Numbered from the stretch's first letter, positions 31,076 through 34,129 are shown. The stretch: DNA of 41,026 bases from Saprospiraceae bacterium (GCA_049241465.1 JBMLQR010000315.1:1-41026), one strand, 5' to 3'. Translations and numbers: made by a program. Notes: a model not told the origin generated them from the sequence alone.

Positions 31076-34000
31076 ATGGCAACAATGGCCAAACTGAATA
31101 TACCTTTTGTCGGTAGCAGATCGTTTTATGAATCTGAACAAGCGTCATTTTATGGACGTATCAAACAAGTGGATGATGTTTTGTTGTTGTTACATAAACA
31201 TAAATTTATAGCATTAACCGGACAGATTGGTTCAGGTAAATCATCATTTTTAGATTCTGGTTTAATTCCCGCATTGAAAAAGGGACACAATGGACTTGCT
31301 GGGAAAGAATGGGTGATTTGTAAAACAAGGCCAGGTCAGGCTCCAATAAGAAATCTTGCTTATGCTTTGTCAGAAAATGATTTATTAAATCCAACCATTA
31401 AATCTACCCCTGAACAACATTTATGGATAGAGAAAAAATTAAAGGAAGGTATCTCTGGACTTGAAACCGTTTATCGACAATCTGAAATTTTTGGTAAGAA
31501 AAATTTAATGATTGTTATTGACCAATTTGAAGATTTATTTTTAAATACAGATCGCTATAATAACGCCGCTGCACTTAATGAAGATACAAATCAGTATATT
31601 AATTCCATCACAGGTGCTAATTTTGCAGAAGAAATTGCAGTGTATGTTGTCATCGCTTTAGGAACTGAAAATATTATTGATATCTCCCCATATCGCCGTT
31701 TACAGGATTTAATGAACCAAGGGCAATATTTACTTCCAAGAATTAGCGGCGTCGATTTAAAACGAATTATTTCGAATCCGTTAGTTGGTTCTAAAATTGG
31801 TGTAAGTCCTGAGTCTGTAGATACTCTTCTTGCACAATTTGGTTCTGATATGCGTTTGCTTCCAAACTTACAGTTTTTATTGTATAAAACCTGGTCTGTG
31901 GTGAAAGATAAGAATCAGGAAAATATTATTATTCAACCGGAAGATCTGGCAAACGTTGGAAATATCCAACATTGTTTTGCCTCACATCTTGAATTACATT
32001 ATGACCACTTGGATGAAAGAGGAAAACAAGTTTTCGAAAAATTATTTAAAGTTTTGGTCTCAACGGAATCTTTGGGTAAATTGACTCAGCCACGAACTTT
32101 GGCACATCTAAGCTCCATTTGCGAATCGTCATTAGAAGAAATTTCAACTTTACTTCTGCCTATTTCCCGAGGGGAGGAAATGTTTTTAGAGATTTTGCCT
32201 CCTGATATTTCTATGAATACTGACAATAGAAACTTTCAACTGCATAAAAATAGTCTGTTAGTTATAAAAAATGAAAATATTTTTATCCACTGGGATAGAT
32301 TTAGAACTTGGCTTGAACAGGAAAAAGAATCTAGAGAAATTTATAAAGGTCTTATTACAGATCAATTAAGGTATGATGAAGGGAAAACCTCTTTACTAAG
32401 ACCGCCCGATTTAGATTTTATATGGCAATGGTATCAACAAAATCAACCATCAAAAATTTGGGGGGAATTTCTTGTTCCGGGATATCAAAATGCAATTGAT
32501 TATCTGACCTTGAGCTATAATACCTATAAAAATGAGTTGTTATTAAAAGAAAATGCCAGAAAAAATGAGATAAAGAGATATCGAAGAAATATGTTAATTG
32601 GTGTTGTGGTTGGAATCGTTACCATATCTGTGGTTTCTTTGTTGGCAATCAATGCACATAATGAAAAGAGAATTGCTAATAGAGAAAGACTTGTTGCTAT
32701 AAAAGCTAAGGAAGATCTGGCCCAAAAAAAATTAATAGCTGACCAATTAAATAGGGATTTATTTGAAAGTAAGGATAGCATAAATCAAATAGTTACCCAA
32801 TTAAAAACCAAAGAAATTACAATTAATAAACAAAATTTATCGCTGGTTAAAAAAAGTAGTGATCTGGAAAAATCTTCTATAACGATTAAGGAACAATATA
32901 AAAATCTTGAGGCTCAAATTAAGGAAACAAAAATTGCCGTTACTAAAGCTGAAATTGCTAAAGAAAAAGAAATAGTAGCAACAAAAAAAGCAAAAACCAG
33001 GGAAGAGTTTAGCAATATTAAAAATCAACTGTTTCTATTGGTGGGTGAATTTTTAGCAAATGAAAATCCGCTTGAATTAATACCAAAATTGAATTCAAAA
33101 ATTAATGACTATAATGAAATTTCAAATGAAGTCGTTGGAACAATACAACCAAATAATACCCTTTTTCAAGTTTTAAATATAGCGACAACTAAATTAGAAG
33201 CTTTAAGAAATAAATCCTCCCAAATTTTAAAAGCTAAAGCCGGATTAAGAACTATTAGTAACCAGAATGGAAGCTTTTTATGCGGTGGTGACGATGGCTA
33301 TCTTTTTATTGGAGGTGGTAAAAATAAGGTGGATATAGGGGAACGAATTAGAGCAACTTTACCTTTAAAAAATGAGCCTTTTGCACTTATTGGAACGTTT
33401 ACTGGAGGAGTTTATGCTATTAATTCTGGTAAGGCTCCTAATAAATTATTAAATTCTTCTTCAAATATGCCCGCTGTTGCTTTACTAAATGCGTTTAAGT
33501 ACGGGGAATATTTACTTGCCACTCAAAATGAACTGGTGCTTTTCTCTTTGGAAAATGGAGTTATTTCTAAATCTATGCTTCGTGATAAATTATTATCGAT
33601 TGTCCCTTTAACTGATCAGAATAAATTTTTATTGTCAACTCAAAAAGGTCTTTATCTTTGGAAAACTTCGGGAGAAATTGAATCATTGATTCAGTTGGGG
33701 AGCGGCGAATTTTCAAATCCTGTTTCTGCAATGACTTTATCAAGAAATATTATTTCCTTTGGATTTCAAAATGGTAAAATTCTCTTGTATAATCTGAGTG
33801 AGTTTTTACAAAATGTTAGGATAAATCCAAAGGAAAAATTTGTTTTTCATCGCACAGATATTACTAAAATACTATTTTTTGAAGATAAATTATTTTCTTC
33901 AAGTCTGGATAAAACTGTTTATTTTGTTGACTTGAAGTTAGAAAATTCGGCAGCCTATGCAGTAAAATTGGTTGATAATAACAGCTGGGTCTGGGACATA

Positions 34001-34129
34001 ATCATACGAAAAGAAAATAATGGGGTAGATTTTTTATATTCTGCCGATGAAAATGGCAATCTTAAAAAGTACTTTGTTAATGCAGATGATCAGTTAAATT
34101 GGATTAATAATCTAGCAAAAAGTAAATGA
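31076..34129 (+). CDS. Membrane-spanning P-loop NTPase (nSTAND-like) with a coiled coil and a C-terminal 7-blade beta-propeller
   Basis: 1017-aa ORF. The N-terminus IPFVGSRSFYESEQASFYGRIKQVDDVL...FIALTGQIGSGKSSFLDSGLIPALKKG...WVICKTRPGQAPIRNLAYAL and the Walker B LMIVIDQFEDLF match the N-terminal NTPase of nSTAND/WD40-type conflict-system proteins. A single TM helix (KRYRRNMLIGVVVGIVTISVVSLLAINA, about aa 500-527) is followed by about 190 aa of K/E-rich coiled coil. Seven roughly 40-aa repeats with G-x-hydrophobic strand motifs follow (DDGYLFIGG, TGGVYAINSG, NELVLFSLENG, QKGLYLWKTSG, QNGKILLYNL, LDKTVYFVDL, ENGNLKKYFV). Confidence 0.65.
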   Translation: MATMAKLNIPFVGSRSFYESEQASFYGRIKQVDDVLLLLHKHKFIALTGQIGSGKSSFLDSGLIPALKKGHNGLAGKEWVICKTRPGQAPIRNLAYALSENDLLNPTIKSTPEQHLWIEKKLKEGISGLETVYRQSEIFGKKNLMIVIDQFEDLFLNTDRYNNAAALNEDTNQYINSITGANFAEEIAVYVVIALGTENIIDISPYRRLQDLMNQGQYLLPRISGVDLKRIISNPLVGSKIGVSPESVDTLLAQFGSDMRLLPNLQFLLYKTWSVVKDKNQENIIIQPEDLANVGNIQHCFASHLELHYDHLDERGKQVFEKLFKVLVSTESLGKLTQPRTLAHLSSICESSLEEISTLLLPISRGEEMFLEILPPDISMNTDNRNFQLHKNSLLVIKNENIFIHWDRFRTWLEQEKESREIYKGLITDQLRYDEGKTSLLRPPDLDFIWQWYQQNQPSKIWGEFLVPGYQNAIDYLTLSYNTYKNELLLKENARKNEIKRYRRNMLIGVVVGIVTISVVSLLAINAHNEKRIANRERLVAIKAKEDLAQKKLIADQLNRDLFESKDSINQIVTQLKTKEITINKQNLSLVKKSSDLEKSSITIKEQYKNLEAQIKETKIAVTKAEIAKEKEIVATKKAKTREEFSNIKNQLFLLVGEFLANENPLELIPKLNSKINDYNEISNEVVGTIQPNNTLFQVLNIATTKLEALRNKSSQILKAKAGLRTISNQNGSFLCGGDDGYLFIGGGKNKVDIGERIRATLPLKNEPFALIGTFTGGVYAINSGKAPNKLLNSSSNMPAVALLNAFKYGEYLLATQNELVLFSLENGVISKSMLRDKLLSIVPLTDQNKFLLSTQKGLYLWKTSGEIESLIQLGSGEFSNPVSAMTLSRNIISFGFQNGKILLYNLSEFLQNVRINPKEKFVFHRTDITKILFFEDKLFSSSLDKTVYFVDLKLENSAAYAVKLVDNNSWVWDIIIRKENNGVDFLYSADENGNLKKYFVNADDQLNWINNLAKSK

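Follow-up and report, generated by a model that had tools for sequence, protein, structure and literature searches.

A membrane-spanning nSTAND1 NTPase as a candidate link between contractile injection systems and the cell envelope in Bacteroidota

Most of what is known of STAND NTPases, a class of switch, concerns cell death and immunity. An open question in the biology of contractile injection systems (CISs) is how those of clade Ib (T6SSiv, AlgoCIS-like and SalCIS-like systems) attach to the cell envelope and time their firing. The anchoring model proposed for SalCIS carries a question mark (PMC13266070), and in Streptomyces one membrane protein, CisA, is essential for firing (PMC12237407). 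We analyzed a stretch of 41,026 nucleotides from Saprospiraceae bacterium (GCA_049241465.1 JBMLQR010000315.1:1-41026; henceforth the window), in which a low-GC CIS island (1191..34129) ends with a gene for a STAND protein. A first-pass annotation had named this protein a candidate trigger or regulator of the CIS, a role that we infer from association. Here we present evidence that it, with relatives encoded next to phage-tail-like injection machines across many Bacteroidota, is a strong candidate for a link between the cell envelope and these machines.

The gene lies at 31076..34129 on the plus strand and is, exactly as annotated, an ORF with an ATG start encoding 1017 amino acids. The nSTAND-type P-loop NTPase proposed for its N-terminus was recovered by the Pfam profile nSTAND1 (PF20703), which matches residues 10-436 (31103..32383, +) over profile positions 1-374 of 379 with E=8.5e-52 and a score of 177.5 bits, well within family membership at the gathering cut-off of 27.1; the only other Pfam matches were a weak one to WD40 and generic ones to P-loop domains. 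Read from the sequence, the Walker A motif (GQIGSGKS, G49-S56; 31220..31243, +) is an intact GxxGxGK[ST], of which G49, G52, G54 and K55 are invariant or nearly so in family alignments. The Walker B/acidic motif (MIVIDQFED, residues 145-153, with IVIDQFED at I146-D153; 31508..31534, +) has D149, E152 and D153 invariant in the family alignments, and its use as a search pattern yielded 549 relatives; in an alignment of 34 family sequences G54, K55, D149 and E152 are invariant. The AlphaFold2 (AF2) model and Foldseek comparisons further revealed the tripartite layout of the STAND class, namely an NTPase, helical domains and a C-terminal repeat sensor. The protein is an nSTAND1-family NTPase by both domain and predicted fold, and a putative ATP- or GTP-driven switch. 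A search of PADLOC-DB 2.0, which covers Avs and other anti-phage STAND systems, returned 0 families at E<=1, and the same search with the products of the partner genes was also without a match.

The NTPase is followed by a helical juxtamembrane region (residues 437-505; 32384..32590, +) that is at least as conserved as the NTPase itself (0.80 vs 0.75), includes the invariant or nearly invariant W452, W462 and S480, and ends in the sequence KRYRRN. Directly after it comes the only strongly hydrophobic segment of the protein (residues 506-525; 32591..32650, +), with a mean Kyte-Doolittle value of 2.81 over 19 residues (next best, 1.43). In nearly all of 101 homologues a segment of this kind occupies the same position, and across the family its hydrophobicity is kept while sequence identity is low, suggesting that it behaves as a genuine transmembrane (TM) anchor, as first annotated. 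Of the 15 residues flanking it, 7 are K/R N-terminally and 4 C-terminally, and among 74 distinct TM segments of the family an excess of K/R on the side of the NTPase is seen in 70 (Wilcoxon p=1.8e-13). This topology signal, together with an N-terminus free of a signal peptide, agrees with the positive-inside argument made earlier; the NTPase is predicted to be cytoplasmic and the C-terminal sensor periplasmic. The AF2 monomer model does place the segment within one long helix, which could be taken to mean that it spans no membrane, leaving a soluble, Apaf-1-like STAND in the cytoplasm. However, the high hydrophobicity, its retention without retention of sequence, the strong positive-inside bias and the exported or membrane-embedded nature of the partner proteins (export signals are carried by the outer-membrane protein, p395 and GH18 protein described below, and the cassettes of TIR-linked relatives reach as far as a T9SS surface protein) make a soluble protein highly improbable. 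The idea that a sensor across the membrane is peculiar to this gene did not hold up, because the TM-after-NTPase layout is the rule in the retrieved nSTAND1 branch, being also seen in TIR-linked cassettes and in relatives whose N-terminus is of the kinase, caspase or SARP type.

In the AF2 model (mean pLDDT 82.9) the TM segment is part of a continuous helix spanning residues 470-661, with two further helices extending up to residue 710. The predicted periplasmic helical stalk (residues 526-715; 32651..33220, +) would be about 20 nm long, as calculated from the length of the predicted helix, and its residues 520-600 are of low confidence (pLDDT 48-56) in this model of a monomer lacking a coiled-coil partner. 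The stalk leads to a WD40-like beta-propeller, predicted to be periplasmic (residues 716-1000; 33221..34075, +), whose 28 strands form seven four-stranded blades with pLDDT of 83-96, matching the stalk and 7-blade propeller of the first-pass annotation. The first Foldseek match of the model is full-length Apaf-1 (E=7e-14), followed by 7-bladed WD40 domains with target-normalized TM-scores of about 0.75. Apaf-1 likewise has an NTPase followed by WD40 repeats, but it is soluble and has an N-terminal CARD, two propellers and a sensor that folds back on the NTPase; with a membrane lying between these parts, such a fold-back would be impossible in the window protein.

Most of the retrieved relatives are encoded in a cassette together with a TIR protein and envelope proteins, an outer-membrane barrel among them. 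These TIR-linked nSTAND1-TM-WD40 cassettes, the sister group to the clade of the window protein, are found in Bacteroidota, Acidobacteriota, Cyanobacteria, Planctomycetota and Verrucomicrobiota, and in 61 of 80 loci a TIR_2+DUF4062 protein is encoded directly upstream of the STAND gene (median gap 4 bp). They share with the window protein and its kin the architecture, the TM position, a homologous outer-membrane barrel and, in some cases, a polytopic membrane-HEAT protein. Their own features are the TIR_2+DUF4062 protein, often a lipoprotein and a giant T9SS PKD protein, and a fast-evolving propeller; all of these are missing from the clade of the window protein, where CIS genes take their place. 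This TIR-less nSTAND1-TM-propeller clade was obtained with bootstrap 100/100 in neighbor-joining trees of the single NTPase domain, both with 12 and then with 16 members. CIS genes or an accessory module (see below) lie beside the STAND gene in 10 of its 11 lineages, as against 3 of 77 loci outside it (Fisher p=6.7e-10), such that the random scatter with respect to CIS loci that would have spoken against the first-pass annotation was not seen; conversely, an upstream TIR gene is present in none of the 11 lineages and in 61 of the 77 outside loci (p=4e-7). The reverse control, 79 sheath loci that are more distant, contained none of the STAND or module genes. The linkage is kept through at least four gene orders among clade sequences sharing only ~25% identity: STAND divergent from the p334 gene (window, L001, L081, L088, L091/92), TMP-AAA-STAND-...-Plug (L083), TMP-AAA-module-STAND-paralogue-Plug (L086), STAND-Plug-p84-cap-sheath (L090) and STAND inside the tube genes (L045). 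In one clade member (L089) no CIS gene was found within 10 kb upstream. The paralogue, seen in some loci, is a P-loop-less STAND whose presence beside the intact copy suggests a structural assembly. Metatranscriptome contigs span the CIS genes, module and STAND gene, and the orthologue cluster at 66% identity includes a Saprospiraceae MAG. Propeller conservation in the CIS clade (0.66 vs 0.75 for the NTPase) also departs from that in the TIR-linked relatives (0.48 vs 0.84); the slow change in the former would fit a constant partner rather than an arms-race ligand.

The CIS block of the window is real: its structural operon (5489..25601, -), identified by Pfam and by PDB matches to chains of SalCIS, AlgoCIS and tCIS, encodes a cap (Pvc16), p280, the sheath, tubes, a DUF5908-size ORF, a tube-like protein, VgrG, gp25, Cis11-like, fibre-like p247 and Cis12-like proteins and a 1750-aa tape measure, with three tube-family genes and a VgrG-like spike in all. 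At the left end of the island is a Cis15/Afp15-type AAA+ ATPase (1191..2543, +; Pfam AAA, E=3.5e-29), which comes after the tape measure in L005, L083 and L086. The STAND gene, at the other end, shares the low GC of the block, as noted earlier (0.31-0.33 over the gene and 0.25-0.36 over the block; 0.41-0.42 from 34.1 kb on). It is separated from the p334 gene by an AT-rich divergent intergenic region that is indeed 121 bp long (30955..31075); its reading as a promoter region gained no support, a sigma-70 scan scoring no better than shuffles with a model that is unsuited to Bacteroidota.

The first-pass annotation was silent on the conserved partners of the STAND gene, of which p334 (29950..30954, -) is the tightest-linked neighbor, adjoining STAND or lying in the module in L001, L002, L081, L082, L086, L088, L091 and L092. 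It is cytoplasmic, its AF2 model shows two Ig-like sandwiches after an alpha/beta region at the N-terminus, and it was without a match in Pfam, PADLOC, PHROG or PDB, and gave only a generic Ig tandem in Foldseek. The module further comprises a DUF4407 membrane protein with a coiled-coil middle and hydrophobic segments (28800..29891, -; Pfam E=1.5e-70), present in the loci that have p334; p395 (27612..28799, -), exported by an N-terminal signal peptide and lacking a family or PDB match; a GH18 protein (25876..27615, -; Pfam E=7.5e-33); and p86 (25607..25867, -), a two-TM protein of a size class left out of standard annotation, with homologues in the CIS-clade loci L081, L086/87, L090 and L091/92. 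The GH18 protein combines an N-terminal signal/lipobox-like sequence, a SleL/YaaH-like domain (PDB matches SleL 4s3j, YaaH and YdhD) with the variant catalytic motif DGVDLNFE (a D-to-N change), and three C-terminal TM helices. Often associated with the module is a Plug-type outer-membrane barrel, in the window a 941-aa protein with a signal peptide (2662..5487, +; Pfam Plug, E=1.3e-14) whose Plug region resembles Cir and BtuB. It is the foremost of the partners missed earlier: its homologues are directly downstream of STAND in 14 GTDB loci and in L083, L086, L089 and L090. In the window 25 kb lie between it and the STAND gene, and its transcription converges with that of the CIS operon.

Comparisons with known systems help delimit what such an ensemble might do. 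The nSTAND1 family, which was introduced together with conflict systems (Kaur, Burroughs, Iyer and Aravind 2020), resembles the window protein in the full-length profile match, intact Walker A and B motifs and C-terminal beta-propeller repeats; the latter differs in its lack of a fused or adjacent TIR, caspase or kinase effector, its tie to a CIS locus, and its propeller across the membrane, a trait common to the retrieved branch and absent from the main text and one supplementary file of that paper. The earlier likening to a Streptomyces membrane factor proves apt in topology and genomic position for CisA (SCO4242), which in Streptomyces coelicolor is required for CIS contraction and firing and is absent from purified particles: it is a bitopic product of a CIS-cluster gene, with a cytoplasmic N-terminus and extracytoplasmic C-domain (PMC12237407), and the same orientation is predicted for the STAND protein. 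However, the N-terminus of CisA is unstructured and its C-domain resembles a substrate-binding protein, with neither NTPase nor propeller (PMC12237407). Moreover, it works in a monoderm, without an outer-membrane partner; the domain compositions described differ, and CisA is taken here as an analogue. In the canonical T6SS, the baseplate is docked by TssM, which sits in the inner membrane, has a P-loop NTPase domain on the cytoplasmic side and reaches a partner in the outer membrane through its periplasmic domain. The TssM-TssJ(-TssL) arrangement thus also combines a cytoplasmic P-loop NTPase with a periplasmic part directed at an outer-membrane partner, but that partner is a lipoprotein instead of a Plug barrel, the NTPase is of another class, there are three TM segments as against one, and Pfam found no IcmF/TssM family match in the window protein, which is not a member of that family. 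In TonB-dependent transducer/anti-sigma pairs of the FecA-FecR type, too, a Plug-domain outer-membrane barrel has a bitopic protein of the inner membrane as its partner, and a signal could reach the latter at its periplasmic domain; their output is a sigma factor instead of an NTPase, and Pfam detected no STN signalling or anti-sigma domain in either the STAND protein or the barrel.

Among solved structures the window sheath is closest to that of SalCIS (E=1.4e-155), for which inner-membrane anchoring via SalCis20, interpreted as acting in wall remodelling and anchoring, has been proposed and release was not detected (PMC13266070). The window GH18 protein shares with SalCis20 the layout of signal, SleL-like domain and three C-terminal TM helices (PMC13266070), though a PDB search gave no direct sequence match to it (9R9A), and the short fibre-like p247 occupies the position of SalCis13. 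The terms WD40 and accessory are absent from the SalCIS paper, which mentions the outer membrane only twice and generically, in a subtype description and in an abbreviation in a figure legend (PMC13266070). Aureispira is of the same bacterial family as the nearest named STAND orthologue, and its T6SSiv also falls into CIS clade Ib. This system shows antennae and a trans-envelope complex of C6 symmetry with inner-membrane, periplasmic and outer-membrane parts; it has no TssJLM homologues, no gene has been assigned to the complex or the antennae, and the authors suspect signalling from outside to the baseplate (Lien et al., bioRxiv 10.1101/2024.01.29.577165). The parts of the complex match the predicted locations of the module proteins, and we hypothesize that the STAND module may be this complex.

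As the best explanation, to which we assign an even chance as a whole, the clade of the window protein would be a fixed accessory of Bacteroidota clade-Ib CISs that lost its TIR effector partner and serves as a trans-envelope coupling device docking or triggering the CIS, analogous to CisA or TssM/TssJ. STAND, the Plug barrel, p395, the SalCis20-like GH18 protein, DUF4407 and p86 would form a trans-envelope assembly, in which propeller and barrel sense an outer-membrane or periplasmic event (contact or a perturbed envelope, for instance), whereupon the stalk and TM helices pack differently. This would in turn permit the NTPase modules in the cytoplasm to oligomerize in a nucleotide-dependent manner, the way other STAND proteins do, into a ring on which the CIS baseplate might dock at the inner membrane or which might trigger its firing, possibly via p334. 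The orientation, partners, oligomerization and CIS effect of the protein are thus all predictions from sequence and gene context. STAND proteins usually signal via fused or recruited effector domains; none is evident here, which sits less easily with the coupling device, as do the low-confidence stalk (pLDDT about 50), the 25-kb distance to the barrel in the window, the L089 locus and the lysis-released AlgoCIS, never seen membrane-anchored although relatives in Algoriphagus carry the module. Rather doubtful is a more specific version, in which STAND, with or without its P-loop-less paralogue, would supply the inner-membrane and periplasmic parts and the Plug barrel the outer-membrane part of the Saprospiraceae T6SSiv C6 complex, with p395, the SalCis20-like GH18, DUF4407 and p86 as accessories and the NTPase ring as a nucleotide-gated dock through which prey contact at the surface leads to sheath contraction, the whole being derived from a TIR-based envelope-surveillance cassette.

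TIR is a typical suicide effector, and the pairing of relatives with it raises the alternative that STAND has kept a cell-death logic: an envelope cue would cause oligomerization and activate a lysis set of the holin-like two-TM p86, the membrane-anchored GH18 as peptidoglycan hydrolase and DUF4407, whereupon the cell bursts and frees an extracellular CIS. The proximity of p86 to a SleL/YaaH-like cell-wall hydrolase, the short fibre-like p247, the release by lysis of AlgoCIS, never seen anchored in a membrane, and the presence of the module in relatives from Algoriphagus are in line with this. Nevertheless, the searches turned up no canonical holin or endolysin family, the GH18 catalytic motif has its D-to-N change, the SalCis20 counterpart points to wall remodelling and anchoring in a system without detected release (PMC13266070), and a conserved outer-membrane barrel and propeller would be needless for lysis, for which reasons we consider a release switch unlikely. 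That the locus is instead an independent envelope-sensing immune or abortive-infection system, hitch-hiking beside the CIS in a defence or mobile island with another effector in place of TIR, appears distinctly unlikely. The definition of nSTAND1 in conflict systems, a branch that is mostly TIR-linked, the terminal position in the low-GC island and the TIR-bearing cassettes next to CISs (L005, L017, L046), which could reflect island clustering, are what it would account for; it is at odds with a monophyletic TIR-less clade that retains its CIS link across the rearrangements, with STAND genes placed inside CIS operons (between AAA and Plug barrel or between tube genes), with the slower propeller evolution and with the lack of PADLOC matches.

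Some STAND proteins, like MalT and AfsR, are transcription regulators. By this precedent the NTPase could control CIS production, for example by gating assembly together with the Cis15 AAA+ or by a transcription signal, with no docking or firing site; the adjacency to a Cis15-type AAA+ in L083 and the divergence from the operon starting at p334 would suit such a role. Yet the protein begins its NTPase at residue 10 and has no DNA-binding or other output domain, and a periplasm-spanning stalk with an outer-membrane barrel partner would be elaborate for a regulator, which renders this very unlikely.

We found no paper describing a STAND-CIS link in a literature search, and the envelope-spanning STAND cassettes with a predicted periplasmic sensor constitute a widespread, apparently undescribed family. 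If the sensor is indeed periplasmic, NLR-like sensing would extend beyond the cytoplasm; if, further, the identification with the trans-envelope complex is true, a contractile weapon would have recruited an NLR-like switch to serve both as its trigger and as its membrane complex. The locus offers a concrete, conserved set of candidate genes for the envelope-link role in Bacteroidota, with the STAND NTPase at its center, and the relatives with the module include those of Algoriphagus, for which genetic tools exist.

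The STAND gene at 31076..34129 (+) has exactly the coordinates called in the first-pass annotation and encodes 1017 aa. The N-terminal nSTAND-type P-loop NTPase and single hydrophobic segment claimed there are both recovered. The Pfam nSTAND1 domain spans aa 10-436 (E=8.5e-52, 374/379 profile positions covered), with an intact Walker A (GQIGSGKS, G49-S56) and an intact acidic Walker B (IVIDQFED, with D149 and E152 invariant), while the sole strongly hydrophobic segment, aa 506-525 (mean Kyte-Doolittle 2.81 vs 1.43 for the next best), is directly preceded by KRYRRN. The protein clearly belongs to a known family; a search against NCBIfam returned only P-loop noise below threshold, and neither the protein nor its partners matched PADLOC. 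AlphaFold2, given 34 family members, produced a model (mean pLDDT 82.9) with a compact NTPase with helical domains, an unbroken helix from aa 470 to 661 that includes the hydrophobic segment, two more helices reaching aa 710, and, between aa 716 and 1000, 28 strands forming seven four-stranded blades, in keeping with the long coiled coil and seven-bladed propeller first proposed from the sequence. The low confidence at aa 520-600 is expected of a coiled coil modelled as a monomer; the 136 helical residues past the membrane give a computed stalk length of ~20 nm. Foldseek, which the first-pass annotation had suggested as a check, ranked full-length Apaf-1 at the top, followed by seven-bladed WD40 domains.

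As the NTPase lacks a signal peptide, N-in/C-out is the only simple topology, and this is the predicted orientation. Unlike in Apaf-1, the sensor would then lie across the membrane and could not fold back on the NTPase, so autoinhibition must differ, likely operating by stalk packing or by control of clustering. In nearly all of 101 retrieved homologues the most hydrophobic 19-mer directly follows the NTPase module, an arrangement that extends to distant relatives whose N-termini are of kinase, caspase/CHAT or SARP type. The contrast drawn earlier with normally cytosolic sensors is therefore inapplicable: a TM helix after the NTPase is a trait of this nSTAND1 branch. Lysine and arginine are richer on the NTPase side in 70 of 74 distinct TM sequences (mean 6.1 vs 3.2; Wilcoxon p=1.8e-13, a value that overstates independence as the sequences are related). 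The TM segment is poorly conserved in sequence across the family and keeps its hydrophobicity, as expected of a membrane anchor.

The gene lies beside a complete contractile injection system (CIS), whose structural block (5489..25601, minus strand, by Pfam) encodes a Pvc16 cap, sheath, gp19-type tubes, a DUF5908-sized ORF, a CIS_tube protein, a VgrG-like spike, gp25, 1259-aa Cis11-like and 924-aa Cis12-like proteins and a 1750-aa tape measure. The closest solved structure to the sheath is that of the Salmonella salamae CIS, SalCIS (9r9h, E=1.4e-155), followed by AlgoCIS and then the cyanobacterial tCIS, and the baseplate proteins match the same three systems; by homology, these matches place the system in clade Ib. 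The tape measure (5489-10741, minus strand) is very long, with only its final ~400 residues matching the CIS_TMP profile; the particle may accordingly be long, like that of Aureispira (420 nm). The gene for p247 (13545-14288, minus strand; 247 aa) lies between those for the Cis11-like and Cis12-like proteins. Its product has weak similarity to phage tail fibres (PHROG) and to the Bdellovibrio fibre protein Bd2133 (PDB 8ond, E=9e-8), and may be the counterpart of trimeric Cis13, a proposed SalCIS membrane anchor.

Five more minus-strand genes, referred to here as the module, separate the cap gene from STAND. These are p86 (25607-25867), an 86-aa ORF with two hydrophobic helices; a GH18 protein (25876-27615) with a signal/lipobox-like N-terminus, a SleL/YaaH-like domain and three C-terminal TM helices; p395, with a signal peptide; DUF4407, a membrane protein with a coiled coil; and p334, with Ig-like domains and no export signal. 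The p86 gene, also conserved in L081, L086/87, L090 and L091/92, might encode a holin-like protein or a small membrane subunit. GH18 resembles the spore-cortex hydrolases SleL, YaaH and YdhD, with a variant catalytic motif, DGVDLNFE, in which the second Asp is replaced by Asn. The p334 model (pLDDT 69) gave only generic tandem Ig folds as structural matches, and PHROGs held no match for p334, DUF4407 or p395. At the far end of the island a Cis15-type AAA+ ATPase (1191..2543, +) is followed by an outer-membrane barrel (2662..5487, +) that has a Plug domain and a signal peptide. This pair (1191-5487) converges on the tape-measure gene, with a single base (5488) between the stop codons of barrel and tape measure; since in other loci the AAA gene comes after the tape measure and is co-oriented with it, an inversion of the pair in the window lineage is suggested.

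The low GC that the first-pass annotation had noted as common to STAND and the CIS block holds (0.31-0.33 in the STAND gene, with a jump to 0.41 directly downstream). The genes at both borders, a truncated XdhC-like gene that runs off the edge on the left (2-1144, minus strand) and a gamma-glutamyltranspeptidase (GGT) gene on the right (34153 onward), have higher GC, the change being from about 0.31 to about 0.41; the island thus spans 1191 to 34129, with STAND as its last gene. L081 and L082 share the gene order of the right flank (GGT, DUF2231-cytochrome-LRR protein, DUF1501, PSD1). Scanning the window for Rfam families and tRNAs gave no hits.

To place the protein among its relatives, we scanned one genome per species, obtaining 549 relatives, and fetched the best 80 of these with 10-kb flanks. 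In an NTPase-domain tree the window STAND groups with sequences from loci that lack a TIR gene and carry CIS genes; this CIS clade has bootstrap support of 100/100 with 12 members, and again with 16. The 16 members reduce to 11 lineages at <60% NTPase identity, among which CIS structural genes lie within 10 kb in eight and the module alone is visible, on short contigs, in two; the remaining lineage, L089, shows neither and keeps a string of STAND, a P-loop-less paralogue, a Plug barrel and a polytopic protein. Homologues are thus not randomly distributed relative to CIS loci, whereas a random distribution would have counted against the link first proposed: CIS genes or the module accompany 10/11 clade lineages vs 3/77 loci outside the clade (Fisher p=6.7e-10), and a TIR gene lies upstream in 0/11 vs 61/77 (p=4e-7). 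The divergent layout of the window recurs in L001, L081, L088, L091 and L092. Elsewhere the order differs: in L083 it is tape measure, AAA, STAND, two unknowns, paralogue and Plug barrel; on an Algoriphagus contig (L086) it is tape measure, AAA, p334-like, DUF4407, p395-like, GH18 and p89, then STAND, paralogue, Plug barrel and polytopic protein; in L090 it is an effector-domain gene, STAND, Plug barrel, p84, cap and sheath; and in L045 STAND stands between tube genes. The STAND-CIS linkage survives these several gene orders. For a control in the other direction we took 79 loci around more distant sheaths (28-48% identity); none contained module genes, so the linkage is specific to the CIS lineage of the window. 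A second protein search with a CIS-clade profile, which re-scored the same candidates and added no new sequences, gained no named Saprospiraceae. In other clade loci, PAAR-like DUF4280 and eCIS_core (DUF4157) effector-type genes lie just beyond STAND (L088 13984-14423; L091 14071-14460 and 17854-19719; L092; L090 8571-9698); no genes of these types were found downstream of STAND in the window.

The sister group is common among the best 80 of the 549 relatives as a recurrent same-strand cassette, defined by clustering neighbours and then scanning the domains of representatives. It comprises, in order, a polytopic membrane protein with HEAT repeats, sometimes a HAMP-PP2C phosphatase, a TIR_2+DUF4062 protein directly upstream of STAND (61 of these 80 loci, median gap 4 bp), STAND itself, an outer-membrane barrel of ~370 aa or of ~880 aa with a Plug (42 loci), a lipoprotein (24 loci) and often a giant PKD-repeat protein with a T9SS sorting domain. 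The cassette spans the cytoplasm to the cell surface and occurs in several phyla (e.g. L014 5262-22148, L043 4379-20149 and L055 3370-21375, in the range L003-L080). Its proteins did not match PADLOC, and it has the look of a hitherto undescribed system for surveying the envelope, with TIR as its output. The Plug barrel of the window is homologous to the cassette barrel (25-40% identity). Compared profile to profile with the TIR protein, lipoprotein and membrane-HEAT protein of the cassette, p334, p395 and DUF4407 revealed no shared domain (probabilities <=1.1%), which leaves unsupported the notion of p334 as bearer of the lost TIR protein's adaptor domain. At three loci, L005, L017 and L046, TIR-bearing cassettes adjoin CIS genes, and these may show how the STAND-CIS association began.

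The two groups differ in how their propellers evolve. In the CIS clade the propeller is conserved nearly as well as the NTPase (close pairs 0.66 vs 0.75, intermediate pairs 0.45 vs 0.52); in TIR-linked Bacteroidota cassettes the figures are 0.48 vs 0.84 and 0.29 vs 0.60, a fast propeller divergence that repeat misalignment could exaggerate. The simplest reading is that TIR-linked propellers track variable ligands, like immune sensors, and that the CIS-clade propeller binds a constant partner. Several CIS-clade loci also encode a STAND paralogue with the juxtamembrane region, TM helix, stalk and propeller and no P-loop (L083 18153-21071, L086 13157-15847 and L089 13129-15831, all without Walker A). 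Such paralogues sit between STAND and the Plug barrel in some loci, and the window has none. The paralogue, too, suggests a structural assembly.

We consider it an even proposition that STAND forms the inner-membrane and periplasmic portion of a device that crosses the envelope and docks or triggers the CIS, the Plug barrel being its outer-membrane portion. A change in the outer membrane or periplasm would be relayed through propeller and stalk to the cytoplasmic NTPase modules, whose nucleotide-dependent oligomerisation would create or activate a site at which the CIS baseplate docks or is fired. The main rival, a lysis or release switch using p86, the GH18 hydrolase and DUF4407, appears unlikely to us; SalCIS shows no detectable release, and an inner-membrane anchoring has been proposed for it through SalCis20 and trimeric Cis13, a model left in part unsettled. 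SalCis20 has a signal peptide, a SleL-like periplasmic domain and three C-terminal TM helices. The window GH18 shares this layout and matches SleL, YaaH and YdhD; it gave no direct sequence match to SalCis20 (9R9A).

An immune system that is co-located with the CIS and independent of it, as the TIR-linked relatives might bring to mind, is improbable beside a linkage that the clade keeps through several gene orders. A role as regulator of assembly or expression seems to us distinctly improbable. That the protein is soluble, its hydrophobic segment notwithstanding, is hardly credible. The 121-bp gap to the divergent upstream gene has the length first given for a shared promoter region, and a scan for sigma-70 promoters and terminators, whose models do not include Bacteroidota promoters, did no better than shuffles.

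Coming back to the trans-envelope device, comparable elements are described in other systems. In Streptomyces, the bitopic CisA is cluster-encoded and required for firing. The AlgoCIS study delimited 18 ORFs, mentioned none of the STAND or module proteins and described particles free in the cytoplasm. A preprint on ixotrophy describes an inner-membrane-anchored T6SSiv in Aureispira, also of the Saprospiraceae, with a C6 trans-envelope complex that has inner-membrane-associated, periplasmic and outer-membrane-associated parts, plus extracellular antennae; TssJLM homologues are absent, the complex is without gene assignment, and the authors suspect that external signals are passed to the baseplate. 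One member of the STAND orthologue cluster (66% identity) bears a Saprospiraceae label. STAND is a named candidate for an imaged trans-envelope structure without assigned genes, and that the STAND module is the T6SSiv complex together with its firing trigger is a tentative idea that we hold as possible, if rather doubtful. We found no paper linking a STAND, WD40 or DUF4407 protein with a contractile injection system, and 'nSTAND1' is absent from the text and one supplementary file of Kaur et al. 2020. Both the dedicated CIS-linked clade and the complete periplasmic-sensor cassette appear to be undescribed.

Freshwater metatranscriptome assemblies contain short contigs, 95-99% identical to the window, over the CIS structural genes, the module and STAND, at similar, low depth, with no strand information and possible DNA carry-over, which gives a weak indication that CIS, module and STAND are expressed. 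In one such contig (run X2, depth 2.8), position 23571 in the sheath gene is joined through 36 unmatched bases to position 31040, a short way before the STAND start; this contig is either an assembly chimera or derived from a rearranged relative.
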